Source: Somniosus microcephalus
Lineage: Eukaryota
Length of the DNA: 64,000 bases
Assembly (NCBI GenBank): GCA_052327205.1
Contig: JBMRGM010000043.1
Span: forward strand, 31,062,001-31,126,000
Direction of reading: 5' to 3'
Below, one piece after another: positions 1,539-61,470 of this stretch. Position 1 is the stretch's first letter, and each line of letters starts with the position of its first letter. The notes under the pieces are model-generated. The model saw only the letters and a list, made by a program, of their open reading frames with translations. It was not told where the DNA came from and searched no databases. The translations under genes were made by a program, and so were the position numbers.

Positions 1539-1793
1539 CCCATGTCCCAGAAGTAGTCCTTAGCAATCCGAGCGATGGAATCGTGAAAGAAGGGGAGACA
1601 TTTTACCTGCATTGTCGATACAGAGGCATGAATCAATGGGCTTATTGGTATAAAGATGAGACTTATATTCATTATAAATATATGTTCTTTGAAAGATATG
1701 CAGATAGTCGCAGTGGAGCGTCTTACCAGTGTTCAGTGCCGCTGCTTTGGTCCTCCTCTGAGAAGAGTAAACCTCTGGATTTAGTCACCATTG
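1539..1793 (+). CDS. Gene 1 Ig exon A (C2-set, FcR D1-like)
   Basis: ttctacag| acceptor, G|gtaggt donor, 255 nt, phase 1-1. AHVPEVVLS..KEGETFYLHC..W..GASYQC..LDLVTI with canonical Cys/Trp/Cys. Confidence 0.9.
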
Positions 1794-3588
1794 GTAGGTA
1801 AACTTCGACACCAATGATCATAGCACAGTTTTAGTCGAGAAATGTGTCGCTTATAAAGGGGCCTCACAGTCAAATATAGTACAGGATATCAAGCACATGC
1901 AATACTGGGATAAAATTGGACCACTGGGCAGAAGTGTATCTTCATCCCTCCTCCTAACAGGGGGACCTCTCGGTTTCCCCAGAGTTGAAATATATGCCGC
2001 TATTTTGTGCGGTAGTATCAGCCAGTTTCACCTCCCATTTATATCACATTAACTTCAATTGAAATATCGCACAGAGTCTAAATCTACCCAAATTCTTACA
2101 TGTTGTTAGGTCAATCAAATGTTATTTATTTCAAGAGAGACCTTAAACCGCTAATTGTGCATGGAACAGCGGCTCTCTAAAACAGCAGATACGAGAAAGC
2201 CACCGTTAATATCTCCTAGAGTAATTTTAAGACTGTGTTGAAAGCTTAAATTCTATTTCCAAAGTTCAAACTACAAAATCTGTGATCTGCAAACTAGTTT
2301 ATATTAATAATAATGACATCTGAGAATTGCTGTGTCGCTGGTCTGATATGCAATGACTTCTCCATTTAAACATTACTTCATCCTCTGCGAAGTAGGTTGT
2401 AGGGTGACCCATCACAGGTTTAAAATCCAACTTTGGTGGAAGCACGTAATGGGCTCTACTCTCTCCAACCCTGTTACAAATCAAATGTAAAAGTCATAAA
2501 ACCGACTGCTGTTTCGTATTCGCTCATTTGCCGCCAATGTGTATTACAAATTTATACCGGAGTGGGAATAACTTTACCTTTCATCGCAGGGTGAAATAAA
2601 CAGGCGAGGTCCAATCAATCGCCATGTTTTAGATTCAGGTGGAGTCGCATTTCTATTTACTTCAGTGTTAAATAAATCGAGAGTGGTTTGAAACTTATGG
2701 CTGCTCCATTACTGCCCTTTGGCCTCTTGGCGGTAAAAGTGAAAAGTAGCTCAAGTGTATCCTCCCGGCGCTCCCCTGGGATCAGGATTGGTTGGAAGTG
2801 CATCTGCAGACCCGAGGCATGGTGAGAAGTGGAGTGTACATTTATCTTGTGTCTCTCAGAAAACAAATTATTATGAGGTGCAACGAATGCTTTTATCTAG
2901 GTAATAAGCAATGCTAGAAAAATTGTTGATAGGTGACTAACTAGGGGCGCTCCTTGAGCACTGCCACAAGTTTATTGTATGTGCAGTGCAAAAACCCTTT
3001 ACATACATAAATGGGGTTCCCTTCCGCACACCTGGCGAAGTTACAGCGGAGGAGCGAAGGCAGGAAATTGCCCTGTGTTTCCACAAAAGGTAATGGGACA
3101 ATGAGCAGCTAATTTGTTTGGTCTTGCTGGACGAACGAGCAATACCCCAGGACACTGGAACGACTTCTTCGTCTTGGCGTCGTTCAATGGGATTTTTAAC
3201 TGATATCAGAAGCACCTGAACAGGTGAAAGCGGCCACGGTTTTAATATCTTGATTGCACAACATTTACAAATACCAGACGTTTATTTAGAGAGGGCTGGG
3301 CATCTGCCTGGCTGTTGAATCGATCCTCGCCATTGAACTTCGTTGATGAAACCTTGAAGGGCAATATGAGCAGTGATAGCTCAGCATTAGAAAGGGAACG
3401 GTCACTCTCTGAACCAATAAACATTAGTTTGGCTTTTCAGGTCTTAAAATTACTTTTAGTTACTGAGGTGATACCGATTGCTCTGGATATTGAGCTGCAC
3501 TTTCAAGCCAATGTTTTTTAACATTGAAGAATGGTGCTTTAACATATTTTAATTTGTATTTCGTTCATATGTTTCACTTTTTTTGCAG

Positions 3589-3855
3589 CTTCTGATATGA
3601 ATTTAACTCTGGAAGTGAATCCAACATCCGCACTGTCATGTGACAGTATTATCCTGAAATGTTTGATGCCTTCCTGGAAATGGAGAGAAGGTTTTCCCTT
3701 CCTGTGGTATCGAGATAAACAGTTAATAGCAGAAACTGACGAATCTCAGTACACCATAGAAAACGCAAAAGAGTCAGATACGGCACCATATCGGTGTGAA
3801 CTCAAAATACGTTACAGGAAGTGGATCTCCCCGGATGTAACCATCACCATAAAAA
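3589..3855 (+). CDS. Gene 1 Ig exon B (C2-set)
   Basis: ttttgcag| acceptor, A|gttggt donor, 267 nt, phase 1-1. ASDMNLTLEVNP..ILKC..FLWYRD..DTAPYRC..VTITIK. Confidence 0.88.
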
Positions 3856-3944
3856 GTTGGTCACTGCTTTTCTTTTTCATTTTCTTTATTTGATCTGGTA
3901 ATGAGCTGTTGAAGGATGTGAAGTATTCTAAGAATCCTTGGCCT

Positions 3945-4235: not shown

Positions 4236-4643
4236 ACCAATGTGGTGGCTGGGTGGTGACAGAGTGATGTAACTGTGAATATTTGCAGAATTCACAGTGA
4301 TCATAGTAGATGTTGAGACACAGCAGGGAATAGCGAAAAGAGCAAAGTTCTATTGAAGGATTCATACTTGAATAAGTCTTGCACAGCGTGGAGTTCCTGT
4401 ATCAGCAGAATATATTAAGCAGATTAAGTTCTCCGCAAACAAAGCAGCGAGTGCAAATCCATAACAATATAGTAATGCTGCCTACTGGAGTGTTCCACAA
4501 TACAGCTGCTGGTTACCATTTAGTACAGTCGCACCTCGTGGTGGTTCTTGGTATATCCTTGCTCTTGTTATCAATAATCTCTGCTATTTGTTTAACTATA
4601 TGAGATGAATTCTTACCTCCCAATCCATATTCTGTTTTCACCG

Positions 4644-4921
4644 AACTCTTCTCCAAACCTAAACTGAGGACTGAGCCTACAGTTAAAATATTTGAGGTAG
4701 ATCAGTTAAAATTCATTTTTTTTATTGAAACAATGCTGTTCAATATTAGGCTTCAATACACATTTCACAAAAATGGCAAAGCTCTGCAGTTGAATTCATA
4801 CATCAACTCTAAGCACATGGGGGCAGCTTCTTTGAAGGGCTCGGTGACTTAGCCTTGTTGAGCAAATGCTTTCTACCACCGTGATAACAACAGAGTGATG
4901 AGGTTTCCATTACGGTAGAAG
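4644..4921 (+). pseudogene. Gene 1 dead Ig exon C (FcR D3-like pseudoexon)
   Basis: Homologous to 41797-42072 and 47853-48131, but the acceptor AG is mutated to CG (ttttcaccg|aactc), there is a TAC>TAG stop near 4850, and the first Cys codon is lost. Confidence 0.85.
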
Positions 4922-6256: not shown

Positions 6257-6535
6257 AGCTCTTCTCCAAACCTACATTGAGGGCTGATTCTGAAGCTCAA
6301 ATATTTGAGGGCCAACAGTTAAATCTCGCATGTTTGGTTGAAATATTTTGCTCCAATTCGTCTTTGAGATATGTATTTTTCAAAAATGAACAAGCTCTCA
6401 ATTCAGCGGCAGACCACAACTATTACATCAAGGAGACATCACTGCTGGACGATTCGGGGATTTACCAGTGTGAAGCAAGTACTTTGAACAGTGAGGTGAA
6501 GAAACTGAGTAATCAGGTTTCTGTTTCAGTCAGAC
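6257..6535 (+). CDS. Gene 1 Ig exon E (FcR D3-like)
   Basis: ttttatag| acceptor, C|gtgagt donor, 279 nt. ELFSKPTLRADS..EGQQLNLAC..YVFFKN..DSGIYQCEA..SNQVSVSVR. Confidence 0.9.
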
Positions 6536-7414: not shown

Positions 7415-7702
7415 GAATCCCAGTGTCCAAACCGGAACTGGCAATCAGCCCTGGTAAAGAGTTACTGGAAGGCGACACAGCATCGTTAACCTGCTCAGTG
7501 TTCAACGGTTCTACCCCGATTACCTACATATTGTACAAAGGCCCAAATAAAGAACTCTTCCGAGAGGAGTCCAACCTAACCGAAATTACTTACCAAATCG
7601 GTAAAGTCAACCAAAGCACCCAAGGGGATTATATTTGTGGTGTTTCAAACGAAGCGACCAGACGTCCTCTACACAGCGATTTTGTTACGGTTGCAGTGCT
7701 AG
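7415..7702 (+). CDS. Gene 1 Ig exon F (membrane-proximal, FCRL D5-like)
   Basis: tttacag| acceptor, G|gtgagt donor, 288 nt. IPVSKPELAISP..EGDTASLTCSV..GSTPITY..GDYICGVSN resembles FCRL 'IPVSRPVL..GSPPILY' domains. Confidence 0.9.
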
Positions 7703-8200: not shown

Positions 8201-8209
8201 GGTGATCAT

Positions 8210-8678
8210 CCAAATTCAGTACCCTGTCCCTGCTTTCTACCCACATCCCTTGATCCTGTTAGCCTTAAGCAACATATCTAACTCCTTCTTGAAAATAATT
8301 AATGAATTGGCCTCAACTTCCTTTTGTGGTAGAGAATTCCACAGGTTCTCCACTCTCTGGGTGAAGAAATTCCTCCTCATCTCTGTTCTAAATGGCTTAC
8401 CCCTTATCCTTAGACTGTGACCCCTGGTTCTGGACTCCCCGACTATCGGGAACATCCTTCCTGCATCTAATCTGTCGAGTCCTTTTAGAATTTTATACGT
8501 TTTATTGAGATCCCCTCTCATTCTTCAAAACTCCAGTGAATATAAGCCCAATTGACCCAATCACTCCTCATACGGCATTCCTGTCATCCCAGGTATCAGT
8601 CCAGTTAATCAGCGCTGTACTCCCTCCATGGCGAGAACATCCTTCCTCAGATAAGGAGAACATCCTTCCTCAGATAAG
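8210..8678 (-). mobile_element. CR1 LINE RT C-terminal fragment
   Basis: ORF 8237-8521 (MRGDLNKTYKILKGLDRLDAGRMFP..RTRGHSL..NLWNSLP). The 5' junction has a short direct duplication (agaacatccttcctcagataag x2). Confidence 0.9.
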
Positions 8679-8682
8679 TTAC

Positions 8683-8868
8683 TTGAGGGCCAACAGTTAA
8701 AACTCGCCTGTTTGGTTGAAATATTTCGCTCCAGTTCAGCGGCAGACCACAACTATTACATTAAGGAAACATCACGGCCTGACGATTCGGGGACTTACCT
8801 TGGTAAAGCAACTACTTTGCACAGCGAGGTGAAGAAACTGAACAATCAGGTTTCAGTTTCAGTCAGAC
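8683..8868 (+). pseudogene. Gene 1 truncated second E-type Ig exon
   Basis: Homologous to 6257-6535. The 5' part and acceptor are replaced by CR1, about 40 nt of the C-strand region is deleted, and the second Cys is lost (TYLG). The donor C|gtgagt is retained. Confidence 0.82.
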
Positions 8869-9061
8869 GTGAGTACAATTTACTGCAATTATCTATCATC
8901 TTTCATCCACTAAATTACCAACACATGCACACAATGGGATTCTTCATTCTGGCACAGGGCTTATCTATATGTTTAAGATGCACTGTATAAATAAATGAAT
9001 ATATCCGTACATACTTGAAACCGTATTATGTTATTCATGGGATATGTTTATTTTATTCCAG

Positions 9062-9163
9062 TGCAGATTCACACAACCGCGATCAGAGCCTCAGTTTTTA
9101 CACTTTTTCTTGTTGCTGCCCTGATTGCACTGGTACTCGTCAATCGTCCCAACAAGAAACAAG
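9062..9163 (+). CDS. Gene 1 transmembrane exon with Arg (VQIHTTAIRASVFTLFLVAALIALVLVNRPNKKQ)
   Basis: ttattccag| acceptor, G|gtgagt donor, 102 nt, phase 1-1. Hydrophobic stretch with an AGA Arg codon at 9085-9087. Same length as the gene 2 TM exon. Confidence 0.88.
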
Positions 9164-13053: not shown

Positions 13054-13139
13054 GGAGGCAACTAGAAACAGACCTCCAAGTGAAGAGAATTCTGCAGACA
13101 ATTCCGAGTCTGCAGGTGTGCGATCAGCTCAAAGCACCG
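13054..13139 (+). CDS. Gene 1 cytoplasmic exon 2, tyrosine-less (EATRNRPPSEENSADNSESAGVRSAQST)
   Basis: cacttag| acceptor, G|gtaagt donor, 86 nt, phase 2-1, matching the previous exon. Paralog of 55121-55212. Confidence 0.8.
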
Positions 13140-13409
13140 GTAAGTTCAACCTGATCAGCATGTGATGAACCGTAGATTGTTTGGGGTAACATTTCCATCG
13201 GAAGTTCTCTCCAATATCGTTATCACTTCGGCAGAAGTTAGGCTACAACTCCAGAGAGATCACCCTTTCTGCAAGTTTTCCACGGAAATTCCACCAACGT
13301 TACGACGAGACATTGGGAAAAACCACATAGAGTTTCTATTTCCTTCTCTGCGTACACTCAGCACAATCTAGCGTTAGGTTTTCTTCTTCACTGTCTGGAT
13401 ATTGACCTA

Positions 13410-23526: not shown

Positions 23527-23557
23527 ATGAAGAACATCTGTCGCCTTCTGATCCTCT
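23527..23557 (+). CDS. Leader exon S1 copy 1 (MKNICRLLIL)
   Basis: ATG + 31 nt, T|gtaagg donor, phase 1. Paralog of 32149-32179. Confidence 0.6.
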
Positions 23558-24124
23558 GTAAGGGAATCTCAAATATCACTAGTGCCTTTGAAAATCTGCG
23601 TCATTCACCCCGGACCCACAATCAGATTAATAAGGCTCATTCTGTAAAAGGCAGCGACGCACTAAATTGATATTGACAGTTTCTGAAAGTAAGACATTTA
23701 TTTAAAATGCGTTGAAATGTCCTTACTATGTTTCAATTTTAATCTGAATTTAGTGCAACAATACTGGGTTTGATTCATCAGGGTAACAGGATCTTTCTGC
23801 TCATCTAAAGAGATCCACTTTACTATAACAGGTTGCTTCTAAACAGCATAATATTTTTGCTTTACCAATTATTTAGCCTCACCTGCAGAAACAGCTTTCA
23901 AATGTCTAATTTTTTTAGTTTTGTTTATAAGTAGGAATTAACAGCTTATGCACTTCATATGAAGTGTCGGCATTGTCCCATTTGTTTCACTCTTACTAAA
24001 TGCTATTAATAAATGCGGTGAGCTTTGCAGTGCTAGGTTTCTGTGGCTAGCTGTTAATCTTGGTCTAAAGCATTGCTTCATGGTTTTGTGTGGCACAGGC
24101 TGGCTTCTTGTTTAACATCTGCTA

Positions 24125-24780
24125 TAGAGAGACTGGGATAAAGATAGATTTATAGAGAGATAGAGAGGGACAAACTTTCACACAGACACAAACACACACA
24201 CACAAGCAGATAACGAAAAATGCAGAGAGAGACCGAGACAGAGATAGAGTCAAAGAGAGAGAGATGGAGTCAATGAGTCAGAGTGAAAGAGGAAGATTAA
24301 CACACGAGAGAGACAGAGTCACAGAGATACCTCAAGTCATAGACACAGATGACTGAGAGAGAGAGACACACAAAAAGAGGCAGAGAGAGAGAGAGAACAT
24401 GAGGGAGAGACAAGGAGGTACAGACACATAGTTAAACACACAGGTAGAATGGAACAACATGCAGTGGCACAGATAGCCAATGAGAGAGAGAGAGCGTCAA
24501 ATAGACAGAGAGAGAGCAACAGAGAGTGACATGCAGACAGTTACACTGACATATAAGGCAAGTCAGAGAGAGAGTGAGACCGAGAGTTATAGAGGCAAAC
24601 AGATGAAGACCGGGAAAGTGTGACAGAGAAAGATTCAGCAAGGGACAGACAGAGAGAGCCAGAGACAGACAAGCAGAAGGCAAACATTCAGGGAGGCGGT
24701 GGGCTAAAGATTCCGTGAGAGAGAGCGAAAGAGAGAGAGGCAGAGCGAGAGACACACAGATAGGGACAGAGCGAGAGCAT
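24125..24780. repeat. GA-rich low-complexity tract
   Basis: Degenerate (GA)n/(GACA)n. Paralogous tracts at 29680-29850 and 32770-33440. Confidence 0.85.
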
Positions 24781-25831
24781 TAGTTTTTTTTCACTCACCT
24801 ATGAGCAAACATTATGATTATATTTTTTAAATTACTGGTGTAAGGGAGAGCAACATACCAGGCACCATTTTGAATTTCAGGCTCATTTAATATATGCTGC
24901 CAAACCTGGAGTTAACAAAGCTGAAGAGATAACAGTTACTTTGATTTAGCTTGAACTAAACTGACGGCTTCAAGGCTTTTGGCAACGAAATTTATAATTG
25001 TAGATCTTTAATGTTAATGTCTGATGCAATTTACTGGCATTTAGACTGGAGTGATTCCTTACGGTCAAATGTCATTGAGACTGCCTTGCTGTGAGATGCT
25101 GACGTCAGCGCTCTGTTGTCTGTTTAGCCAATGCACCACAAGAGATGAAAACAGGAACAAATAACGGGGTTTGCATCTTTAGTGTACCACAGGCTCTTTT
25201 AGCAGAACCTCATCTATTTTAATAACATGACATTAGTTGTGGGACCATGTCAGCCACAGCTAGTTCCACAGCTTAATGCGGTAAATCTTAAATGATGATA
25301 AGTAATTCTTAACTTGTCTGTTCTTGGCCTTATAATCGCCCCCATGTTTTATTTGTTGCACAGCACATAAAATCCACCTTGTGAAAATAATTGGCCAAAT
25401 TAAATACTTGAATCATTCACCTCATTGAATCCTAGCTGGACAAAAGGCCCAGGTTCTACATGCTAAACAATGAAATACACACACATCTGCATTGATCATT
25501 GACCTTTTTGCAATTATTTTTGAAAAGGTTGCAGCATTAGGCGTTGCCTTAGTAGTGTGATTCCTCTGGTCTGAGGCGTGATAAAATATTTCTGCAGCCA
25601 GCTGCTTGATCATGCACTGTCTTCACGAGCAACATTTGCCACCCAGTCAAAACTTGTGATGCTGATTAGGCTAAAGATGATTTAAATGATGATAGAAACA
25701 TTTGAAATGGAGTAGCCCATTCAGCCCTTCGAGGCTGCTGATTTTTCATTCAACTATACAATGGGTGATCTGTACCTCAACTCCAATGACCCCCTTTTGC
25801 TCAATATACATTGTTGCCCTCACTCAACTAG

Positions 25832-26225
25832 TGTCAGCCGTGGCTCAGTGAGCAGCATGCTCGACTCTGAGTCAGAAGGCTCGTGCATTCAAGTCGCACT
25901 CCAGAGATTTGGGCAAAAAATCTGGGATCAAACTCCAGTGCAGTGCTGTGGGAGTGCAGCATTTTCAGAGGTGCCGTCTTTCGGATGATACGTTAAAGCG
26001 AGGCCCCGTCGGGGAGATTATCCCCGGTGCCCTGGGCAATATTTGTCCTTCAGTCAACATAACATAAACAGATTATCTGGTCATTATCATCATCACTGTG
26101 TGAAAATTGACTGCTACTCTTCCTACAGTGACTACACTTCAAAAGTACTCCACTGGCTGCAAAGCGCTTTGGGAAGTCCTGAGGTTGTGAATGGCGCTCT
26201 AAAAATGCAAGTCTTTCTTTTTTTA
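25832..26225 (+). mobile_element. DeuSINE-like (SacSINE1-type) tRNA-derived SINE
   Basis: gccgtggctcagtg head, ccagtgcagtgctg..gaggtgccgtctttcggatga core, aaagcgctttggga..gcaagtctttcttt tail. Confidence 0.75.
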
Positions 26226-26786
26226 ACTAAAATATATCTTGATCGCCGTATTGGCCGTTCCAATTTACCACCAGATTCCACAGCGCTCTTACCGGAGTGA
26301 GTTGCAATTTCTCAATACACAATGCATGAAAAGGTGCTTCCTGATTTCCATCCTAAATGGACTATCACTAATTTTGAAGAAATGTTCTCTTCTCCATGAC
26401 AGAACAAACACACTCATTGGCTCTCAGAACAATGACTCATTTCAATCTTTGTCAGTTTCCTTTCATCCGGCAGCAACTTTCCCATGTAGTACTCAGACCA
26501 TTAGGATCTTCAACAATAAAAACATCTTATCTTTCTTCGTGAGATGGTCAATTGACATAATTCGATGTATTAATATTTTACATTTACATCAACAGAACTG
26601 AATACCTGGCAGAACGTATAGACTAGCAGCAAATGTGGTACCGCCTGTTTTGTGTCCCTGCCGAAGTCGAATTTCTCCCCCTGGGTATTTCCTCTATTCA
26701 GCTGCCTTACAGATGAGCAGCTTTGGTCAAATTTGAAGATGGTCTCAGATAATGAAACACATTTTACATTGTCTTCTCTCTTTCAG

Positions 26787-26816
26787 TGCAAGTTACTCAT
26801 CAGTCGAACACACAAG
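26787..26816 (+). CDS. Leader mini-exon S2 copy 1 (xQVTHQSNTQ)
   Basis: Strong polypyrimidine tract + cag| acceptor, G|gtatga donor, 30 nt, phase 1-1. Paralog of 36110-36139. Confidence 0.62.
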
Positions 26817-27589
26817 GTATGATGACAATAATCTGCATTATTGATAATCCAGTTTGTGGAATGAACGCTTCCAATTTATAGCTATAGGACAGCAGCAATC
26901 AAGCAATGAAGTCATTTTCAGCTTCCGCCCGAGCGTGAAACTGCGTTCTGGAATCGCCACCTATAATGGAAAAGCTCGATCATCATTTTCATTGATTCAG
27001 GGTGAATTGAAAGTGGGCGGTTTCTCTAATGGTCGGCCAATCAGAACCCCATTTGTAAGCCTCAACGTAAAGTTTAATGTCTACCACAATATATTAAAGA
27101 CAAAGTGACCTATAAATTGGTGTGGGTAACTGTCAGCTCATCAGCTGAGGATTGGAAGCGTGTAATCATAATTGAGTAAATAAATGGATGGATAGATCGA
27201 CAGGTCTAAGATGAAATAATAACAAATGTTGATGAAATTAGGGTGTTACTCTTGTGTTCCACATAATAGACTTGTTTGTGAAATAGAAATCAAAGTATTA
27301 AGGACAACATAAGGGGCGTCAGCTTATCATAAGAAGGGACACGTGACCTTCAATTGCCACGATTGTCGCTATGGCTTTTCGGGTTATAGATCTATTGGTC
27401 GTTAATCAAGTGCTTTTAAGGAAATATTCTAAAGGATGTCATACCTGTACTTTAACATATTCCAATATATACTTACTTTATATTTCTTCTGAGTAATATA
27501 CAACATTTTCAGTCTGTTGTTATCTACATATCGATGTATCTCTTTTTGATTGTCTTACCATCTATCTAAGTATCTGTCTGTTTATTCAT

Positions 27590-28300
27590 CGACAGTATAG
27601 CAAATAATCAAAGGCAGGCACCAATAGGACAGATTAGGTTCCAGTCATAAATTGTATCAGTAAAATAGTCCAGGTACTAACCATAGACCTGTATCATTAG
27701 GACAGTGTAATTGATAAACATAGGCCTGTATGAGTAGGAAATAAAGTTTGAAAAATGTGCCGATACCAAAAGGACAGTATAGTTACAAATCAAAAACCTG
27801 CAGCAATAGGACAACATAAACAGTCATCAAAATACCTCAGCCAGTATGACAGATAAGGTATTAATCATAGGCCTGCATCAATAGGACGGTATAGATAGAT
27901 AATGATTAGAGACATGCAGCAGTCGGACACTGCAGGCATTAATCATAGACCTGTATCAGAAGGACTGTGAATGTACTGAGCATTGACCAGCACCAGTAGG
28001 GCTATATATGTTGTAATTACTAACTGCATGAGTAGTAAATTAAAAGTTCCTTATCTAGTGCCTCTGTGTCGCATCCAGTTCTAGACCAACACCAATAGAA
28101 CTGTGGAGATTCTAAATAGATTTCACTGCAGTAGTATAGAGTTGGTATTTATCGGCGATCTGGGCAATGGGGACAGTATAGCTACTAAAAGCTGACCTGT
28201 ACTAGTGGTGGAGTCAAGTACTGATGACATACATTCTGCAGTGGGAGAGTCGAGGCAGCAATCATAGACCTGCACCAGTAGGTGAAACCTAGAGAGAGCT
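27590..28300. repeat. Degenerate minisatellite, ~36-37 bp unit (approx. atcatagacctgcatcagtaggacagtataggtacta)
   Basis: Recurring catagacctg/cataggcctg and taggacag words at about 36 bp spacing. Confidence 0.7.
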
Positions 28301-28342
28301 CCAGAGAGGAACAGAACTATGCGGCTCAAGGAGTTGCCCCAT

Positions 28343-31265
28343 ATAAGCCTGGTTTTAGGCTTCATTAATTTGAGTCGAATCACCTAGTTGCTAAACATTA
28401 CTGACTGGATTAAACTCTCGGGACTTAAATGGTTAATTATGCCAGGGTGCAACAGTTTCAGTGGTCTGATGTTTCACTGGTATTAGCACTTCGCCTCCGT
28501 TCCCCCTCTACAGATGTACCAGGCCACACACACACAGAGCTGGGGTGACCACTTCCCTAAGCCCTTGAAAAAAACAAGCCTTCAAACTGGGGCCACAGAG
28601 CAGGCCAGTCTCTCTTTTAACGTTATAAACTGCGGTTAGAATAAATCATATTGAAAACAGTTTCAAGCGATGACTCCGGCCTGGAATCCAACTGTTCTCT
28701 TCTGATAAAAATTAATTTTAAAACTGACAGGGCTCAGTTAACTTTTCAGCGTTAGGTTGGATTCGTCACCGTGTACGGTTTAATTTCCTCTTGTCTCAAA
28801 TGTGGTCAGAAGTCAAAGTGATCTCAGTGTGCAGTCGCCTGGAGCATGGACAGTGAGCCCCACAGCTGCAGACTGCTGTCGGGGCACTCGCTCCAGCCGC
28901 TGTCTCCTCATTCCCCATAAGTACAGACTCGGGATCTGCGTGTGCGGGCGTTTGGTACTGAAGAATTAGCACAGAGTCAGCGGCTGAATGTGATTCTATG
29001 ATCTCACTTTTCAGGTGAACAGAACTGAAAACAGCTGATCCGAAGCTCGCGTCTTCACAGAGGGAGGTGGACTGCTGCTCAGGTCCCCCGCATTCGAAAT
29101 GAAGCACATCTGTCGCCTTCGGATCTTCTGTAAGTGAATCTCAAATATATCCAGTGCCTTTGAAAATCAACGCCACTCACCCCTGACCGTTAATCAGGTT
29201 AATAAGACTCATCCCGTGAGAGGGATCATCACACTAAATTAATATTCAGAGTTTATTAAGTTCAAACATTCAATTATACTGCATTGAAATGTCATTTCCA
29301 TGCTTCAGTTTTAATCAGAATTTAGTGGAACAACAGAAATAAATTTGATTAGTCAGGCTAACAGGATCTTTCTGCTCATCTAAGGTTGCAGCCGACTTTA
29401 GACACATCTAAACGGTCCAATATTTATTATTTTACCAATTATTTACCCTCACCTGCAGAAACTGCTTGCACTTTTCTTATTGTTGTCGTTTTGTTAATTA
29501 AAAAAAAATATTTATGCGCTTCATATCAAGTTTCAGCGTTGGCTCAGTTGACTCACTCTTACAAATTGCTATTAATACATGCGGTGAGATTTACAGTGTG
29601 TGGGTTCTGTGGGTAGATGATAAACTTGGTGCACTTGATGATTTCGAGTGCGGCAGGCACGCTTCTTGTTAACAACTGCCACAGAGAGAGAGAGAAAGAG
29701 AGAGAGGGGGAGAGAGGCGGAGCGGGAGAGGGAGTCAGAGCGAGATACAATCAGATAGGGACAGAGAGAGACAGATAGACAGAGATTGTAAGAAAGTAAC
29801 AATGAAGCTGTCCACGAAGGAGAGTGACAGAGAGAGGGAGAGAGGGCAGGAGTTTTTTTTTCAACTCAGTTTTGCAGATTCACTATATGAAGGGCTTATT
29901 TTATTTTCTGTTGTGAGGGAGAAAATACACATTAACGGGACGACATCCCTTGAGTTAATAAAGCTGAGGAGAACAAATTTACTATGATTTTACTTGACCT
30001 AAACTGACGGCTTAAGGGTGTTTGGCAGGGAATTTTAAAATGCTGGATCTTTAAAATTAATTTCTGATGCTGTTTACTGGAATTTAGACAGAAGTGACTC
30101 TTTATGGTTACAGGACATTGAGGCTGCCTTCCTGTGAGATGCTGGCGTCAGCGCTCTATTGTCTTGTTAACCACTGGATCACAAGCCCAGCAAACAGGAA
30201 CAAACAACAGGGTTTGCATCTTTAATGTACCATCGACTCTTTCGCCAGAATCTCATCTATTTTAACAACTTGACATTAGTTGTGGGACCATGTTGGTCAC
30301 AGCTAGTTCCACAGATTAATGAGGTAGAGCTTAAAATATGTGGTTAATCTCAAATTGTTCTTTCTTGAGCTTATAATAAGCCACATGAGTTATGTGTTGC
30401 ACTGCACATAAAACCCACTTTTTGGAAAGAATTGTCCTAACTGAATGCTTCAATCATTCACCCTATTGAATCTTAGCTTGACAAGTCCCAGGTTCGACAT
30501 GTTGAACAATGAAATACAGACACATCTGCATTGACCATTGACCATTTTGCAATTATTTTTGCAAAGTTTGCAGCAACAGGTATTGCCTTAGTAGTGTGAT
30601 TCCTGTGGTCTGAGGCCGACAAAAGCTTTCTGCTGCTTTCTGCTTCTAGCTGCTGGGTCATGTACTGTCTTCACGAGTATCAGTTGCAACCAAGTCAATA
30701 CTTGTAATTCTGATTCGGTTAAAGATAAGTTAACTGATAATAGGAACATAACAACAGGAGTAGGTCATTCAGCCCTTCGAGGCTGCTCTGTCATTCAACT
30801 ATATCATGGTTAATCTGCACCTCCACTCCAATTACCCCACCTTGCTCAATATCCAATGTTACTCTTCCTCAACTAGTGTCAGCCGTGGCTCAGTGTATAG
30901 CATTCTCGCCTCTGAGTCAGAAGGTTCGTCCATTCCGGTCCCACAACAGGGACTTGAGCACAATCAACTAAGCTGACACTCCAGTGCAGTGCTGAGGGAG
31001 TGCTGCAATGTCGGATTTGCCGCCTTTCGGAGGAGACGCTAAAGTGAGGCCCCGTCAGGGGAGTTATCCCAGGTGCCCTGGCCAATATTTCACCCTCAAT
31101 CACCTAACAAAAACAGATAATCCTGTCATTATCAACATCACTGTGTGGAAATTGACAGCTACGTTTCCTACAGTGACTGCACTTCAAAGGTACTCCATTG
31201 GCTGCAAAGCGCATTGTGAAGCCCTGAGGTTGTGAACGGCGCTATAGGAATGCAAGGCCTTTTTT
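28343..31265 (+). pseudogene. Orphan FCRL-like gene relic 2: promoter + leader exon S1 (29099-29129, MKHICRLRIF) + part of intron 1
   Basis: Colinear with 22453-26225 and ends at the SINE tail. No S2 exon. Leu>Arg in the leader core. Confidence 0.72.
30878..31265 (+). mobile_element. DeuSINE-like SINE (duplicated with the block)
   Basis: Same element and position as 25832-26225 and 34435-34780. Confidence 0.75.
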
Positions 31266-32047: not shown

Positions 32048-32050
32048 TTA

Positions 32051-32148: not shown

Positions 32149-32179
32149 ATGAAGCACATCTGTCGCCTTCTGATTTTCT
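32149..32179 (+). CDS. Gene 2 leader exon S1 (MKHICRLLIF)
   Basis: aaATGa start, 31 nt, T|gtaagt perfect donor. Joins S2 and exon A in frame to give MKHICRLLIFLQITHQATTQ-APGPEV. Confidence 0.7.
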
Positions 32180-36109: not shown

Positions 36110-36139
36110 TGCAAATTACTCATCAGGCGACCACACAAG
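36110..36139 (+). CDS. Gene 2 leader mini-exon S2 (LQITHQATTQ)
   Basis: tcttctctctttcag| acceptor, G|gtatga donor, 30 nt, phase 1-1. Confidence 0.72.
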
Positions 36140-37399: not shown

Positions 37400-37651
37400 C
37401 TCCTGGGCCGGAAGTGCTGGTTAGTTTTCCCAGCAGTGGTGTGGTAAAGGAAGGAGAGGAATTTAAGCTGCAGTGTAGATACAGTGGCAAAGCTACTTAC
37501 ACTAATTGGTTAAAAAATAATATACATTTCCATGAACCTCAGAGTGAGTTTTATGAATCACTAGCAGACAGCAGCAGTGGAGGCTCTTACCAGTGTGATG
37601 TATGGTCAAACAAATCGGAGAGGAGTGAGGCTCTGGAAGTGGTCACAATCG
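37400..37651 (+). CDS. Gene 2 Ig exon A
   Basis: ttctgcag| acceptor, G|gtaggt donor, 252 nt. APGPEVLVS..KEGEEFKLQC..W..GGSYQC..LEVVTI. Confidence 0.9.
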
Positions 37652-38648: not shown

Positions 38649-38909
38649 CTTCTGATATGATTTTAACTCTTGAAGTAAAACCAAGAGCCACGCTGTCAGG
38701 TGAACGAATTATCCTGAATTGTTTGGTGTCTGACCAGAAAGGGAGAGGATACTTCCTGTGGTATCGGAAAGAAGAGATAATACATGGAAGTTCTCAATCT
38801 CAGTACATCATAACTAAAGCAGAAATTGCAGATGGGGCATCTTATCGGTGTGAATGCAAAATAGGCTACAGGAAGTGGGTCTCGCAGGAAGTAAACCTCA
38901 CCGTAACAG
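38649..38909 (+). CDS. Gene 2 Ig exon B
   Basis: ttttcag| acceptor, G|gttggt donor, 261 nt. ASDMILTLEVKP..ILNC..FLWYRK..DGASYRCEC..VNLTVT. Confidence 0.9.
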
Positions 38910-40494: not shown

Positions 40495-40749
40495 ATGGCG
40501 ATGTGGCCTTCCAGGTCGACCCACCTTCGGTTTTGGAAGGAGATGTTCTGAATCTGAATTGTCGGTACAGAAAATATTATTTGTGGAAAGATGTTGGCTT
40601 TTACAAAGGAAATAGAAGGATCCACTCAATGAAGTTGTATTATTGGAACGCTCTGCATAGCATTAGAGTGAATAGTTCAAAAGACAGTGGATCATACCAT
40701 TGTACTATTGACGAGAAAATTTATCGAAGTGTTCATGTTCACGTTCACG
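40495..40749 (+). CDS. Gene 2 Ig exon D (FcR D2-like)
   Basis: cattag| acceptor, G|gtacgt donor, 255 nt. DGDVAFQVDPPSVLEGDVLNLNC..VGFYKG..DSGSYHC..VHVHVH. Confidence 0.9.
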
Positions 40750-41796: not shown

Positions 41797-42072
41797 AACT
41801 CTTCTCCAAACCTAAACTGAGGACTGACCCTGCAGTTGAAATATTTGAGGGACACCAGTTAGTATTCATCTGTATTATTGAAACAATGCCGTACAGTAAT
41901 GGGCTTCAATACTCATTTTACAAAAATGGCAAAGCTCTGATATTGACTTCATACAACACATTTAAGCTCACGGAGACAGCTTCTTTGAAGGACTCGGGGA
42001 CTTACCTGTGTGAAGCAAATATTTCCTACCGCGTTGTGAAAAAGAGTGATGAGGTTTCCATTGCGGTTAAAG
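41797..42072 (+). CDS. Gene 2 Ig exon C (FcR D3-like)
   Basis: ttcacag| acceptor, G|gtaagg donor, 276 nt. ELFSKPKLRTDP..EGHQLVFIC..LQYSFYKNG..DSGTYLCEA. Confidence 0.9.
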
Positions 42073-43401: not shown

Positions 43402-43680
43402 AGGTCTTCTCCATACCTACACTGAGGGCTGAGTCTGGAGCTCAATTATTTGTGGACCAACAGTTAAATCTCGCCTGTTTGGTTAAAATATTTCGATCCA
43501 ATACTTCCTTGAGACTCGTATTTTACAAAGATGGACAATCTCTCACTTCAGCGGCAGACAACAACTATTACATCAAGAAGGCATCTCGGCCGGACGATTC
43601 GGGGAATTACTGGAGCGAAGCAACTACTTTGAACAGTGAGGTGAAGAAACTGAGTAATCAGGTTTCCGTTTCAGTCAGAC
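43402..43680 (+). CDS. Gene 2 Ig exon E (open frame but lacks second Cys)
   Basis: ttttatag| acceptor, C|gtgagt donor, 279 nt. DSGNYWSEA instead of DSGxYxCEA. Confidence 0.8.
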
Positions 43681-44737: not shown

Positions 44738-44995
44738 ATCGCAAATTGGCCTTCAATGTCGACCCACCTTCGGTTTTGGAAGGAGGTGTTCTGAATCTGA
44801 ATTGTTGGTTCAGAATGCATTATTGGAGGCATAAAGATGTTGGCTTTTACAAGGGCAATATAAGGATTCACTCAATGAAGTTGACCGATCGGAGAGCTCT
44901 GCATAGCATTAGAGTGAATAGTTCAAAAGACAGCAGATCATAGCATTGCACTGTTGGCAATAAGGAATCACGAAGTGTTCATGTTCACGTTCAAG
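44738..44995 (+). pseudogene. Gene 2 Ig exon D' with premature stop
   Basis: Duplicate of 40495-40749 with splice sites intact. TAC>TAG at 44941-44943. Confidence 0.85.
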
Positions 44996-47852: not shown

Positions 47853-48131
47853 AACTCTTCACCAAACCTAAACTGAGGTCTGAGCCTGCAGTTGAAATAC
47901 TTGAGGGAGACCAGTTAAAATTCATCTGTTTTATTGAAAATATACCGTCAAATATTTGCTTAAAATATTCATTTTACAAAAATGGCACAGCTCTGATCTT
48001 GACCCCATACTACAAATATATTCTCACTGAGGCAGCTTCATTGAAGGACTCAGGGACTTACCAGTGCGTAGCAAATGCTTTCGACTTTGGTGTGAAAAAG
48101 AAGAGTGATGAGGTTTACATTTCGGTAACAG
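47853..48131 (+). CDS. Gene 2 Ig exon C' (intact; not in supplied ORF track)
   Basis: ttcacag| acceptor, G|gtatgg donor, 279 nt. Manual translation is open: ELFTKPKLRSEPAVEILEGDQLKFICFIENIPSNICLKYSFYKNG..DSGTYQCVA..EVYISVT. Confidence 0.88.
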
Positions 48132-49319: not shown

Positions 49320-49598
49320 AGCTCTTCTCCGAACCTACTTTGCGGGCTGATTCTGGAGCTCAATTATTTGAGGGCCAACAGATAAAACTCGCCTGTTTGG
49401 TAGAAATATTTTGATCCAATTCTTCCTTGAGACTCGTATTTTACAAAGATGGACAACCTCTCAATTCAGCGGCAGACCACAGCTATTACATCAGGGAAGC
49501 ATCTCGGCCGGAAGATTCGGGGATTTACCGGTGTGAAGCAACTACTTTGAACCGTGAGGTGAAGAAACTGAGTAATCAGGTTTCAGTTTCAGTCAGAC
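49320..49598 (+). pseudogene. Gene 2 Ig exon E' with premature stop
   Basis: Splice sites and both Cys are intact. TGA at 49412-49414 where the paralog at 43402 has CGA (CpG transition). Confidence 0.85.
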
Positions 49599-50288: not shown

Positions 50289-50576
50289 GAACCCCAGTGT
50301 CAAAACCGGAACTGGCAATCAGCCCTGGTAAAGAGTTAATAGAAGGAGACACAGCGTCGTTAACCTGCTCAGTGTTCAACGGTTCTACCCCGATTACTTA
50401 CATTTTCTACAAAGACCCGGATAAAGAACTCTTCCGTGAGGAGTCCAACCTAACCGAAATTAATTACCAAATCAGTGAAATCAACCAAAGCACCCAAGGG
50501 GATTATAGTTGCGGTGTTTCAAACAAAGCGACAGGACGTCCTCTGCAAAGCGATGTTGTTACAGTTTCAGTGATAG
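50289..50576 (+). CDS. Gene 2 Ig exon F (membrane-proximal)
   Basis: tttgcag| acceptor, G|gtgagt donor, 288 nt. TPVSKPELAISP..LTCSV..GDYSCGVSN. Confidence 0.88.
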
Positions 50577-52429: not shown

Positions 52430-52531
52430 CACAAAGTCACACAACCGCGATCACAGCAGCCGTTCTTCCACTTTTTCTGATCGCTACCCTGATTGCACTG
52501 GTTTCCTTCAAATTTCGGAAAAAGAAACAAG
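52430..52531 (+). CDS. Gene 2 transmembrane exon, uncharged (AQSHTTAITAAVLPLFLIATLIALVSFKFRKKKQ)
   Basis: attccag| acceptor, G|gtgagc donor, 102 nt. Hydrophobic helix followed by a basic stop-transfer segment. Confidence 0.9.
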
Positions 52532-53089: not shown

Positions 53090-53148
53090 GTAAGTCTGCA
53101 AAATATTTGTATTTGTCAGTCATAACTATATCCATGATTATACTGAAA

Positions 53149-55015: not shown

Positions 55016-55120
55016 TAGCTACTGCTGAATGTTTCTATGATGCTGTAACATTTCGTTGAAAGTGAACTTTGAGTTGTTGATGCATGAATCCTTAATATCT
55101 AAGAATATTTTCGTGCAAAG

Positions 55121-55212
55121 GGTGACAACTGAAAATAGATCTGTACCTCCGAGTGAAGAAACATCTGCGAGCAATTTCGAGTATGCAGTTGGGGGATCAG
55201 CCCCAAATACTG
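55121..55212 (+). CDS. Gene 2 cytoplasmic exon 2 (VTTENRSVPPSEETSASNFEYAVGGSAPNT)
   Basis: gcaaag| acceptor, G|gtaagc donor, 92 nt, phase 2-1. Tyr at 55182-55184 in a non-canonical FEYAVG motif. Confidence 0.78.
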
Positions 55213-56193: not shown

Positions 56194-56250
56194 CTTCTAG
56201 TTCTGATCAGGTAACCTACAGTTTAGTAGAAGGCACGAAGCCCATGGAAG
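56194..56250 (+). CDS. Gene 2 cytoplasmic exon 3 with ITIM VTYSLV
   Basis: Long polypyrimidine tract + cag| acceptor, G|gtaagg donor, 57 nt. ASSSDQVTYSLVEGTKPME. Confidence 0.85.
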
Positions 56251-56999: not shown

Positions 57000-57065
57000 A
57001 TATTACCGGAAATGCTGCCAATTTAGTGTATTCGGAGGTCACTATCAGAAAGTCACGAGACTGTG
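57000..57065 (+). CDS. Gene 2 cytoplasmic exon 4 with ITIM LVYSEV
   Basis: tctgtttag| acceptor, G|gtaaat donor, 66 nt. DITGNAANLVYSEVTIRKSRDC. Confidence 0.85.
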
Positions 57066-57139
57066 GTAAATTCTGTGAATTGTTCGCTGCTGTTGCTAAG
57101 GGAGATGATAATTACAGTTCTAGATAATGTTGGGATATT

Positions 57140-60100
57140 CCTGTGCTTGGTATAGTGGGAATGAGGCACATGGACTGTAAACTAAATAGTGGGGGTTGGG
57201 AATCAGGTGAAGGGGAACTTCGAAAGTCAAAGAGAAGGTAGAAGGTAATAGTGCAAGGTAGCGATAGGGTTAATGATAACTAGAGAGTGACAGGAGGAGA
57301 TAGAGCATACAAACATAAACGTGCAACTACACATAGATTCAGAGTCGGTAAAAATGGTATAAAATAAATAAAAGTTATTTATCTGAATGCACACAGCATT
57401 CGTAACAAGATAGATGAGTTGGCGGCATGAAGAGAAATAAATGTGTGTGATCTGAAAGCCATTACAGAGACGGGGTTGCAAGGTGACCAAGGCTGTGAAC
57501 TGAATATTCAGGGGTATTTGACATTTCGGAAGAATAGGCAGAAAGCAAAAGGAGTTGGGTAGCTCTTTTAATAAAGGATGATATCAGTGCAGTGACGAGA
57601 AATGATATTGCCTCAGGAAATCAAGATGTAGATATAGTTTAAACGGAGAGAAGAAATAATAAGTGAAATAAGTCACTAGAGGGAGCAATCTATAGGCCTC
57701 GTAAAAGTACCTACACTGTAGGACAGAGTATAAATCTTGAAATAATATTGGCTTGTAAGAAATATACTGTGATAATCATGGGCAATTTTAATCTTTATAT
57801 AGATTGAACAAATCGAATTGACAAGGTTAGCCTTGAGGACGAGTTCATAGAATGGATTCAGGATGTTTTGCTAGAACAATACGCTGTGGAATCAACCAGG
57901 GAGAAGTCTATTTTAGACCTGGCAATATGTAATGAGGCAGGATTAATTCATGATCTCATGGTAAAGGATTCTCTAGGGAACAGTGATCATAGCATGATGA
58001 ATTTCTAATTCAGTTTGAGGGTGAGAAACTTGGGTCTGAAACTAGTGTCCTAAACTTAAATAAAGGCAGTTACAAAGGTATGAAGGCAGAGTTGGCTAAC
58101 GTAGACTGGGAAAATAGATTAATGAGTAAGACGGTAGAAAATCAGTGACAGGTATTTAAGGATATTTTTCGTAACTCTCAGCAAAGATTTATTCCAGCGT
58201 CAAAGGCAGACTCTACGAGAAGGATGAACATCTGTGGCTAACTAAAGAAGTTAAAGACGGTATCAAATTGAAAGAAAAGGCAGATAATGTTGCAAAAATT
58301 AGTGGTAGGTCAGAGGATTGGGAGATTTTTGGAATTCGGCACAGGATGAATAAAAAACTAATAAAGAGGAAGAAATAGATTATGAAAGGAAACTAGCACA
58401 AAATATAAAGAAACAGACAGTAAGAGCTTCTACATGTATATAAATGGGAAGAGAATAGCTAAAGTAAACGTTGGTCACTTAGAGGATGGGACTGGGGAAT
58501 TAATAATGGGAAACAGGGAAATGGCAGAGACTTTGAATACACTAAAAGCATCACAATAATAATTGGTAATCAAGGGCTATGTTCACAATATATATCAGTA
58601 ATTTAGGTGAGGGTACCAAATGTAATATTTCCAAGTTTTCTGACGTCACGAAACCAGGTGGGATTGTGAGTTGTGAGGAGGATGCAAAGAGGCTTCAAGG
58701 TGATTTGGAGAAGTTGAGTGAATGGGCAAATACATGGCAGATGCAGTATAACGTGGATAAATGTGAAGTTATCCATTTCGGTACAAAAAACAGAACGGCT
58801 GAATATTATTTAAATGTTGATAGATTGGGAAATGCTGAATTACAGAAGGACCTGGCCGTCCCTGTACACCAGTCACTGAAAGCAAACATGGAGGTGCAGC
58901 AAGCAGTTAGGATGGCAAATTATATGTTGGCCTCCATTGCAAGATGACTTAAGTAGAGGGAAAATGAAACCTTACTACATTATACGTGGCCTTGGTGAGA
59001 CCTTGTGCATTTTTGGTCTCCTCACCTAAGAAAGGATAAACTTGCCACAGAGGGAGTGCAGCGAATGTTCACCAGTCTGATTCCTGGGAAGGCAGGACTG
59101 TCGGATGAGCAGAGATTTGGTCGACTAGGCCTGTATTCACTAGAGTTTAGAAGAATGAGAGGGGATCTCATTGAAACGTATAAAATTCTGACAGTGCTAG
59201 ACAGACGGGATGCAGGGAGGATGTTTCCCTGGCTGGGCGGGTGGGGTCTAGAACGATGGGTCACAGTCTCAGGATGCGGGGTAGGACATTTAGGACTGAG
59301 ATGAGGAGAAATTTCTTCACTCAGAGGGTGGTGAACCTATGTAATTCTCTACCACAGATGGCTGTCGAGGCCAAATAACTGAATATATTTTTAGAAGGAG
59401 ATAGCTAGATTTCCAGACACAAAAGGCATCAAGGGGTATGAGTAGAGAGCGCGAATATGATATTGAAATAGATAATCAGCCATGATCACATTGAATGGCG
59501 AGCAGGCTCAAAGGGATGAATGGCCTACTCCTGCTACTAATTTTCAATTCACTATGTTTTCTAAATCAATGACTATCACTAGAGAAGAACTGCGAGGCAA
59601 ATTAATGAGACTAAAGACTGACAATTGCCCTGGACCTGATGGCCTACTTTCAAGGGTCTTAAAAGAAGAGGCTCCAGAGATACTGGATGCGTTGTTTGTA
59701 ATCGACCAAAATTCCATGGATTCTGGCGAGCTCCCAGTGCCTTGGAGAACCGCAAATGTAGCACTTCTATTAAAGAAAGGAGGGAGGCAAAAAGCAGGAA
59801 ACTATAGGCCAGTTAGCCTAACATCTGTCATTGGGAAAATGCGGGAATCCATTATTAAGGAAGTCATAGCAGGACATTTAGAAAATCCTAATGCAAACAA
59901 GCAGAGTGAACATGGTTTTATGGAAGGGAAATTGTGCTTGACAAATTTACCAGAGTTCTTTGAGGATGTAACGAGCAGGGTGGATAAAGGGGAACCATTA
60001 GATGTGGTGTATTTGAATTTCCAGAAGGCATTCGATAAGGTGCCACATAAAAGGTTACTGCACAAGATAAGAGCTCATGGGGTTGGGAGTAATATATTAG

Positions 60101-61150
60101 CATGGATAGTGGATAGGATAACTAACAGAAAAATGAAAAGCCGGGATAAATGGGTCATTTTCCAGTTGGCAAACTTTAACTAGTGGGGTGCCACAAGAAT
60201 CAGTGCTGGGGCCTCAACTATTTACACTCTATAGTAATGACCGGGCCAAATTTGCTGATGATACAAAGATAGGTGGGAAACAAATTGTGAGGAGTACACA
60301 ATTAGTTTGCAAATATAGATATGTTAAGTAAGTGGGCAAAAATATCGCAGATGAAGATTAATGTGGGAAAATGTGAGATTATCAACTTTGGTAAGAAAAT
60401 TAAAACAACAAATTATTATTTAAATGGAGGGAGACTATTTAATCCTGCCATACAGAGGGATCTGGGTGTCCTCGTATTTGAAACACAAAAGGTTAGCATT
60501 CAGGTACAGAAAGTAATTAGGAAGGCAAATGGAATGTTGTCCTTTATTGCCAGGGGGTGGAGCATTAAAGTAGGGAAATCTTGCTACAATTGGAGTACTG
60601 CATGCAGTTTTGGTCTCCTTATTTCAGGCGGGATATACCTGCATTGGAGATAGTTCAGAGAGGGTTCACTAGGCTAATTCCTGAGATGAAGCGATTGTCT
60701 TCTGAAGAAACGTTGAGCAGGATGGGCCCATACACATTGGAGTTTAGAAGAATGAGAGGTGATCCTATTGAAACATATAAGATTCTGAGGGAGCCTGACA
60801 GGGTAGATTTAGGGAGGATGTTTCCCCTCGTGGGGTAATCTAGAAGTAGGGGGCACAGTCTCAGGATAAGGGATCGCCCATTTAAAATGGCGATGAGGAG
60901 TAATTTCTTCTCTGAGGTTCGTGAATCTTTGGAATTCTCTACCCCAGTGAGCTGTGGAGGCGGAGTCATTGATTGTATTCAAGGCGGAGATAGACATATA
61001 TGTGAGCTACAGGGGAGCGAAGGGTTTTGAGGAGCGGATGGGAAAGTGGCGTTGAGGGCAATATCAGATGAGAAATGATCTTATTGAATGGTGGTGCTGG
61101 TTCGAGGGACCGAATGGCCTACTCTTGCTCCTATTGCTTATGTTTCTTAT
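57140..61150 (+). mobile_element. Degenerate near-full-length CR1 ORF2 (outer element, 57140-58577 + 59563-61150)
   Basis: Endonuclease start (YLNAHSIRNKIDEL) at 57380. RT motifs in ORF 59482 (PGPDG..NYRPVSLTS..YLNFQKAFDKVPH). C-terminal ORFs 60321 and 60581, tail at 61140. Confidence 0.92.
58578..59562 (+). mobile_element. Inner 5'-truncated CR1 nested in the outer CR1
   Basis: ORFs 58579 and 59005 are RT C-terminus with their own 3' tail. The outer element resumes at 59563 about where it broke off. Confidence 0.85.
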
Positions 61151-61438
61151 GAAATATCACGTAGATGTTATTAGCACATGTAATTTTTACCTTACTCAGC
61201 CTGGCCGAAAATGGACAGGGTCTGGTGAAATGCGGTTCTCAATCGCACCCATTTTTACCCTCCTACTACAATGGAGAGAAAATCCACTGGGGATAAACCC
61301 AGAAATTGTCCCGATCCCTTCAGTTTACCGGCAGGGTAGGTGAGATTAAAATGACCCCGGATTAGGCTGGATTTATCTAATTCTGTTCATCAACTTCCCC
61401 AGATTGTTTCATTTATAATGCGTCTCCTTTATTTACAG

Positions 61439-61470
61439 GTAATGATGGTGGCGCCTCAGGAAGGAAACAG
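61439..61470 (+). CDS. Gene 2 cytoplasmic mini-exon 5 (GNDGGASGRKQ)
   Basis: tttatttacag| acceptor, CAG|gtaagt consensus donor, 32 nt, phase 1-0. Continues the frame of exon 4. Confidence 0.65.

Follow-up and report, generated by a model that had tools for sequence, protein, structure and literature searches.

Do cartilaginous fishes have paired activating and inhibitory leukocyte receptors of the Fc receptor (FcR) type? A 2014 survey states that no FcRL, FcRγ or C2-only homologues of the leukocyte receptor complex (LRC) were found in sharks (PMC4016189), and a 2026 review repeats the lack of FcR-like and LRC-type C2 receptors in cartilaginous fish (PMC13337447). We studied a locus that bears on this question, a stretch of 64,000 nucleotides (nt) in the 6.4-Gb genome of Somniosus microcephalus (C43:31,062,001-31,126,000, C43 being contig JBMRGM010000043.1), here called the window. 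The original prediction, made from the letters of the window, described two adjacent paralogous receptors with matching exon sizes and phases, gene 1 and gene 2, in an elasmobranch host. Exon mapping by splice sites and phase confirmed the two paralogues: at the positions given below the exons have canonical AG/GT sites, the immunoglobulin (Ig) exons are in phase 1-1, and homologous exons of gene 1/gene 2 measure 255/252, 267/261, 279/279 and 288/288 nt, with 102/102 for the transmembrane (TM) exon, 31/31 for tail exon C1 and 86/92 for C2. Pfam Ig models matched 10 of the 11 intact Ig exons tested, the exception being gene 2 D5, which has lost its second Cys. The best per-domain identities (45-74%) were to proteins of the sharks Heptranchias, Pristiophorus and Heterodontus, with rays lower, in keeping with the predicted host. 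The observation is real, and larger than first described: both genes belong to a tandem array on C43 that is quite probably a paired leukocyte receptor system of FcR-type Ig receptors.

At least 45 TM exons of this kind were present on C43 (40 found by genome search and 5 by scripts): a single exon at 21.5 Mb, further ones clustered at 25.27-25.66 Mb, and the rest in the main array (30.27-31.89 Mb). Array gene counts are lower bounds, with 30.26-30.74 Mb and most of 25.42-25.66 Mb outside the reading. The 1.14 Mb read continuously (C43:30.74-31.89 Mb) held 33 gene models, many of them near-copies of a repeat unit of ~70 kb formed by genes 1 and 2. All 14 models with an Arg in the TM segment had only two short tail exons and lacked C3-C6, and all 17 models with a Thr had tails with immunoreceptor tyrosine-based inhibitory motifs (ITIMs), although these 31 are not independent cases, many being near-copies; two further models had no TM exon. 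The 16 distinct TM exons separated by residue, Arg or Thr, at 100/100 support, and the distinguishing codon differs by one base. The Arg is placed N-terminally within the TM segment, and the motif around it was TAIR in five of the seven distinct Arg exons, TTIR in one and NTIR in one; models 21 and 29 were of the Arg type with a damaged donor.

The two signalling modules were found behind the same ectodomains. Gene 1-type ectodomains (96-98% identical to that of gene 1) stood on ITIM tails in models 4, 17, 20 and 28; the distal domain of model 28 is identical to that of gene 1, yet the tail carries ITIMs, and in model 4 the switch between ectodomain and tail was located in the D5-TM intron. 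The gene 1 TM exon, in turn, was identical in nine copies and lay behind at least two ectodomain types. Within this one cluster, ectodomains that are almost the same thus carry opposite signalling modules. The paired activating/inhibitory logic proposed in the original prediction is borne out by the two TM/tail classes and the shared ectodomains, and its view of a rapidly changing cluster is supported as well. Genes 1 and 2 are nevertheless not the matched pair they were taken for: their distal domains are only 50-51% identical, their domain content differs, and the partners of gene 1 are the four ITIM genes elsewhere in the array.

Gene 1 (on the + strand, as are all exons given here in window positions) comprises four intact Ig exons, one acceptor-less pseudo-exon, an Arg TM exon and two tail exons, and begins outside the window, with one leader exon 3.6 kb and the other 0.8 kb upstream of it. 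The distal Ig exon (1539..1793) has no clear FcR subtype and shows an excess of amino-acid variation among copies (see below). The second (3589..3855) is FcR D1-like, as typed via its gene 2 homologue, and is followed by a D3-type pseudo-exon with stops and a lost acceptor, predicted to be skipped (4643..4921), an FcR D3-type exon (6257..6535) and a membrane-proximal exon resembling FCRL D5 and PECAM1 D6 (7415..7702); there is no D2-type domain. A remnant of another D3-type exon, its 5' part replaced by a fragment of a long interspersed nuclear element (LINE), lies at 8655..8880. The TM exon (9062..9163) has its Arg (AGA, 9085-9087) in the motif TAIR, and the tail exons are C1 (9688..9718) and C2, with an inferred read-through to a stop at 13163-13165 (13054..13165). 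The in-frame reading is 464 aa long and its tail has no Tyr, so that both the TM Arg and the Tyr-free tail of the original prediction stand. Read-through of the C2 donor led to a double stop within a few codons in six of six Arg-type copies sampled (C2 82-100% identical). Because this stop is common to all six and no ITIM-exon homologue lies downstream, the gene 1 tail most likely ends there: no homologue of C3, C4 or C6 aligned in 13140-23500. A candidate last exon near 14590 was dropped for the shared read-through stop, and three ITIM-like hexamers in candidate downstream frames were rejected as lying in LINE fragments or intergenic DNA. An AATAAA is present at 14202, 3' of the tail.

Gene 2 has a split leader of 31 and 30 nt, nine Ig exons, a neutral TM exon and a tail of six exons that encodes three ITIMs, with YENF at its end. 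Leader exon 1 (32149..32179) matches the N-termini of annotated shark relatives and is followed by the mini-exon (36110..36139). The Ig exons are D1, the distal domain (37400..37651), D2 (38649..38909), D3 (40495..40749), D4, of the FcγRI/FCRL D3-type (41797..42072), D5, D3-type with the second Cys replaced and no Pfam match (43402..43680), D6, D2-type with an in-frame TAG at 44941-44943 (44738..44995), D7, D3-type (47853..48131), D8, D3-type with an in-frame TGA at 49412-49414 (49320..49598), and the membrane-proximal D9, similar to FCRL D5 and PECAM1 D6 (50289..50576). The TM exon (52430..52531) has a Thr (ACA, 52453-52455). The tail consists of C1 (53059..53089), C2 with one Tyr outside the ITIM consensus (55121..55212), C3 with VTYSLV at 56211-56228 (56194..56250), C4 with LVYSEV at 57023-57040 (57000..57065), C5 (61439..61470) and the terminal C6 with VTYAIV at 62984-63001 and YENF (62954..63082), an end that is homologous in ray and shark proteins. 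The neutral TM segment and first two ITIMs had been predicted correctly; the third ITIM and the terminal exon had been overlooked, the gene having been ended at 61470. At the rate of the ITIM consensus in the window's forward frames (0.0021 per codon), about 0.3 would be expected in a tail of ~135 aa, compared with the three present (Poisson P ~0.003); the motifs of C4 and C6 are also found in relatives from rays and sharks. With stops in D6 and D8 and splice sites intact, the window's gene 2 is probably a damaged copy, which would be either a pseudogene or dependent on skipping both exons. Spare leader exons lie upstream of it (23527..29129; copies of leader exon 1 at 23527 and 29099 and of the mini-exon at 26787) because promoter and leader segments were duplicated; between 22300 and 36550 they occur two to three times, the copies having diverged to 76-88% identity.

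To which family do the domains belong? The best matches of gene 2 D2, D3 and D4 in the PDB were FcγRI D1, D2 and D3, in gene order, so that gene 2 has the FcR D1-D2-D3 arrangement and gene 1 has it without D2. In profile scores the D2- and D3-types were best on FCRL/XFL domains and D1 was ambiguous. The AlphaFold structure predicted for a ray orthologue (mean pLDDT 73.8, pTM 0.46) superposed on the three-domain FcγRI ectodomain with a TM-score of 0.86 and an rmsd of 2.6 Å; other multi-domain matches had rmsd values >16 Å, and PirB, first by E-value, >23 Å. LILR matches among five domains tested against the PDB were weak for one (26 bits) and none for the other four, and the domains are not of the LRC type. 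The leader is split, at 31/30 nt rather than by the 30/21 rule of FCRL, a rule that only a fraction of XFL genes follow (PMC2413239). Of the FcR/FCRL signatures claimed in the original prediction, the FcR-type domains hold; the mini-exon has 30 rather than 21 nt and the PVSKP-type domain is nearer to PECAM1 D6 (see below). It would be safe to speak of an FcR-type D1-D2-D3 cassette within the FcR/FCRL-PECAM1 group, a statement that stops short of FCRL orthology.

Several observations weigh against a paired system of FcR-type receptors. Some concern the domains. The membrane-proximal domain scored 77 bits on PECAM1 D6 vs 48 on FCRL D5 in per-domain profiles; its top PDB match was FCRL5, by a score summed over repeats. 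Per-domain phylogeny, which had been proposed as a check (a quick tree and a 33-row tree, with one eel FCRL-like fragment as the sole possible LITR sequence), gave no verdict between FCRL and PECAM1: the 96-column trees were mostly unresolved, the D3-type grouped with FCRL D3 at a support of 36, the proximal domain grouped weakly with PECAM1 D6, and an approximately unbiased test between FCRL and PECAM1 rejected neither (P=0.14). The fold match belongs to a ray protein, and AlphaFold is perhaps biased to the solved FcγRI. These data could mean that the array consists of PECAM1/Allergin-1 paralogues with adhesive or inhibitory roles, not FcR relatives, and that the Arg copies are degenerate by-products of duplication. 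Many relatives are automatically named PECAM-like, the Arg form was seen in 0 of 27 TM-bearing relatives (see below), and the PECAM1-like genes on C21 lie with another TTYH and CDC42EP paralogue, so that C21 and C43 may be paralogous segments. The PECAM1 tail is encoded by many small exons, as in the shark genes, and PECAM1 and Allergin-1 share the proximal domain type and a VYSEV-like ITIM with them. We consider this explanation quite unlikely, however: separate PECAM1-like genes exist on C21, FcR/FCRL domains are the best matches of the D2- and D3-types and come in the order found in FcR, a divergent C43 member has a clear FCRL D1 signature, and the Arg module is kept in seven distinct TM exons, with a conserved stop, and reused on several ectodomains. 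A PECAM1 orthologue would be a single gene with six PECAM-type domains, and here only the proximal domain matches; neither the D1-D3 cassette nor an activating class is a PECAM feature. The PECAM1-like genes are two in tandem, at C21:69.78 and 69.90-69.92 Mb. The divergent member has four Ig domains, an Arg TM and a strong FCRL/FcγR D1 match (C43:25.27-25.30 Mb, with a copy at 30.27 Mb); a Pristiophorus protein with a similar N-terminus has an ITIM tail instead of the Arg TM.

The other unfavourable observations concern function. Five of nine gene 2-type copies examined were broken, and four were fully open (998 aa for the two translated). Some of the near-identical tandem copies could represent two haplotypes that the assembly has merged. 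The context of the Arg is TxxR in most copies and NxxR only in two models with broken Ig exons, and 18 apolar residues follow the Arg, which may therefore sit at the outer membrane edge. Two RNA runs labelled with the same species were compared with gene 2 (37300-57200), using roughly 1/4 to 1/3 of either run, tissue unstated. None of the 15 read joints listed, with 94 more beyond the listing, connected exons; depth was <1 in repeat-free exon bins and zero in most exon-free unique bins, and the reads neither confirm nor refute splicing. The gene 1-type distal exon had 12 amino-acid-changing and no silent variants in seven copies (one copy dropped for its length) vs 3/400 in the flanking introns (Fisher P=2.4e-4). 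Tested against silent sites alone, this excess, in one of 13 exons tested, gave P=0.13; it may come from a few block conversions, and no like excess was found in the gene 2 distal exon. These distinct-variant counts replace a pooled pairwise dN/dS (3.35 for the distal domain), which was abandoned because pairs are not independent. One might then regard the array as mostly one or two ancestral inhibitory genes multiplied without function by segmental duplication, or inflated in the assembly, given the many broken exons, the damage in 5/9 gene 2-type copies, the 98-100% identity between copies, the trace-level RNA and the near-neutral patterns in several exons among close copies. That seems very unlikely to us: lesions and insertions differ between copies, open models include the 4/9 gene 2-type copies and the Arg-type models 2, 9, 11, 13, 18, 24 and 26, and gene 1-type D5 had one changing vs five silent variants (P=0.003).

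If the receptors are functional, are they the antibody receptors that sharks seem to lack? They could be the actual Fc receptors for IgM, IgW or IgNAR, in activating and inhibitory forms like FcγRIIA/IIB. The FcγRI-like three-domain geometry of the ray orthologue model is compatible with this, genes under the names fcgr1a-like, fcrl3 and fcrl5, possible members of this family, are expressed in the B cells of bamboo shark (PMC11372145), and shark antibody-dependent phagocytosis is held to be unexplained in the 2026 review (PMC13337447). On the other side, an extra distal domain stands ahead of the cassette, gene 1 has no D2-type domain, and the variation focused on the distal domain, like the turnover of copies, is more readily expected under pathogen pressure than with a constant self ligand. 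The Trp residues of FcγR D2 form the sandwich that binds Ig, and both are replaced in the D2-type domain (gene 2 D3). That these are the actual antibody receptors of the shark seems rather unlikely. As gene 1 is without the D2-type domain, its ligand would more likely be a pathogen or a cell-surface molecule than Ig; with their D1-D2-D3 cassette retained, gene 2-type receptors would be better candidates for Ig binding.

The chromosomal position, read in one genome only, differs from that of the FcR genes. Between the two clusters lie TTYH1 (C43:26.9-27.1 Mb; the sole PDB match for its exon) and a CDC42EP gene (C43:26.38 Mb), and PRPF31 is at C43:16.3 Mb with a diverged CNOT3-like exon adjoining (16.31 Mb). 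TTYH1, CDC42EP, PRPF31 and CNOT3 frame the mammalian and frog LRC in the descriptions given in PMC6557307 and PMC4536121. The FcR-locus markers are elsewhere, NDUFS2 and an FcRγ-like (FCER1G-like) gene on C40 and PRCC on C41; linkage of the array to the 1q21-23 markers looked up (PRCC, NDUFS2 and FCER1G-like) was thus not found. Searches with the D5-type and the FCRL-D1-type gave nothing on C40 or C41 (SLAM, IGSF9, DUSP23 and VANGL2 were not searched), and the genome search with the D3-type was saturated by C43 paralogues (150 of the 152 scored) and says nothing about other chromosomes. The array lies with LRC markers, not with those of the FcR locus. The LRC synteny is partial, with RPS9 on C41, the full CNOT3 on C28 and marker distances of 0.7-9 Mb; the presence of the CNOT3-like exon by PRPF31 while the full gene is on C28 suggests a move or an old duplicate. 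The array receptors are FcR-type by their domains and, more tentatively, LRC-like by position and TM. RPS9 occurs twice, 26 kb apart, at C41:30.93 Mb on the PRCC chromosome, where 19q13 and 1q23 markers are mixed.

Related proteins were found in 15 named shark and ray species under automatic names such as FCRL2-6 or PECAM-like. These RefSeq relatives, whose names are not curated, share domain types, order and ITIM tail with the window family, and the annotated proteins show the same inhibitory exon chain. Of 33 proteins at least 48% identical to the proximal domain, 27 had a TM segment and 26 had ITIM-like tails; the Arg/short-tail form was sought among the 27 and not found. A lineage-specific origin of the Arg form is likely on these sequences, with the caveat that database clustering could hide activating twins. 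The relatives retrieved from databases included no chimaera member. Most relatives of other sharks have an extra Ig exon before the TM exon, between it and the proximal domain, as does one array member at C43:25.41 Mb; it was lost from the window genes.

We propose that the Thr-TM members would inhibit through their three ITIMs, recruiting SHP-1/2 or SHIP upon binding a self ligand, and that the Arg-TM members would pair with the FcRγ adaptor and activate, following the precedents of LILRA and of XFL (PMC2413239). The Arg-TM XFL depend on FcRγ (PMC2413239). Two TM exons of the ζ/FcRγ family were found in the shark genome, one with an Asp at C40:10.607 Mb, 340 kb from NDUFS2, and one at C14:86.66 Mb; the former is probably FCER1G. 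A complex prediction for the gene 1 TM with a dimer of the FcRγ-like TM scored 0.07 and was counted neither way. The ITIM form is read as ancestral, since it is the sole form found in other sharks and rays, and the Arg form would be derived, its activating module born by one Thr-to-Arg change and truncation of the tail. This module may then have come to lie behind several ectodomains through unequal recombination within the intron that precedes the TM exon. Against microbes that exploit ITIM members, activating twins sharing the distal domain would act as a counter, and this would account for the variation in amino acids of the gene 1 distal domain.

The closest known system is the XFL family of Xenopus, which as described in PMC2413239 forms a large intermingled FcR-type cluster with split leaders and phase-1 Ig exons, and has Arg-TM short-tail and neutral-TM ITIM classes, including pairs with similar ectodomains. 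In the details given there, activating XFL have an NxxR motif, a separate TM type, and TM and tail in one exon (PMC2413239); in contrast, the shark Arg TM, related to the inhibitory TM through a change of one codon, retains two exons for the tail. The XFL leader is 30/21 nt vs 31/30 in the shark, and XFL are linked to SLAM, IGSF9 and DUSP23 genes (PMC2413239) whereas the shark array is on the TTYH1 chromosome. With mammalian FCRL1-6 and FcγRI the shark genes share the D1-D2-D3 order and fold, a D5-like proximal domain and a multi-exon ITIM tail ending in YEN. Unlike them, they have an extra distal domain, repeated D3 types, a proximal domain nearer to PECAM1 D6, no Trp sandwich and a 30-nt mini-exon, and they lie off the PRCC and NDUFS2/FCER1G chromosomes. 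LILRA/LILRB, PIR-A/B, KIR2DL/2DS and chicken CHIR show the same paired logic, shuffling of ectodomains and tails, and a site near TTYH1 and a CDC42EP gene; LILRA also has an N-terminal TM Arg, and activating KIR were likewise derived from an inhibitory TM (PMC6557307). These LRC receptors differ in that the shark Ig domains are FcR-type. Among fish, the teleost LITRs (PMC4810170) are a further expanded set of paired Ig receptors, with affinity to FcR/FCRL.

The stated absence in sharks is contradicted by a family of at least 45 FcR-type genes in which both signalling classes occur, and this family provides named candidates for the study of Ig binding and adaptors. Their location among LRC markers bears on a common origin of the FcR and LILR/KIR clusters, and a one-codon origin of the Arg module, if true, would be an independent case of an activating receptor arising from an inhibitory one. 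A broader combination, which we hold as doubtful and offer tentatively, would join FcγRI-shaped paired receptors in an ancestral LRC beside LILR-type exons, FcR and LILR/KIR from one cluster predating bony fish, an activating arm from a single Thr-to-Arg change in this lineage, and some members as the missing shark antibody receptors. For elephant shark, a 2021 paper in Immunogenetics on LITR/FCRL synteny reportedly described two genes of fcrl-like and one of LRC-like type. Searches of the open full-text literature, from which subscription journals are largely absent, brought up no account of a paired array of FcR-like receptors in sharks. Already known is that databases automatically label the family FCRL- or PECAM-like, and one single-cell paper uses such labels (PMC11372145), which tempers the surprise; PMC5278576 offers gene ontology terms only. 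The FCER1G-like gene on C40 stands beside the 2014 survey's statement that FcRγ was not found in sharks (PMC4016189).

The long open reading frames of the window were mostly fragments of LINE reverse transcriptase, at 192-1227, 8203-8662, 15590-18520, 19660-20600, 46670-47760 and 57370-61150, which we take to be CR1-type. Nearly all RNA reads placed on the window fell on these fragments. At C43:31.898 Mb, 12 kb past the array, a degenerate Ig exon matched LILRB1/LILRB2 and no FcR; the stretch just past the array also holds further decayed frames of Ig-like type, one copy of histone H3 and 7TM (seven-transmembrane) receptor genes. A two-Ig gene at C28:42.237-42.243 Mb, 190 kb from the complete CNOT3, gave mixed PDB matches (FCRL5, Robo and OSCAR); the orthologue in Pristiophorus (82% identical) combines a TM Arg with a tail of 10 aa, an organization that resembles OSCAR, GPVI and NKp46.

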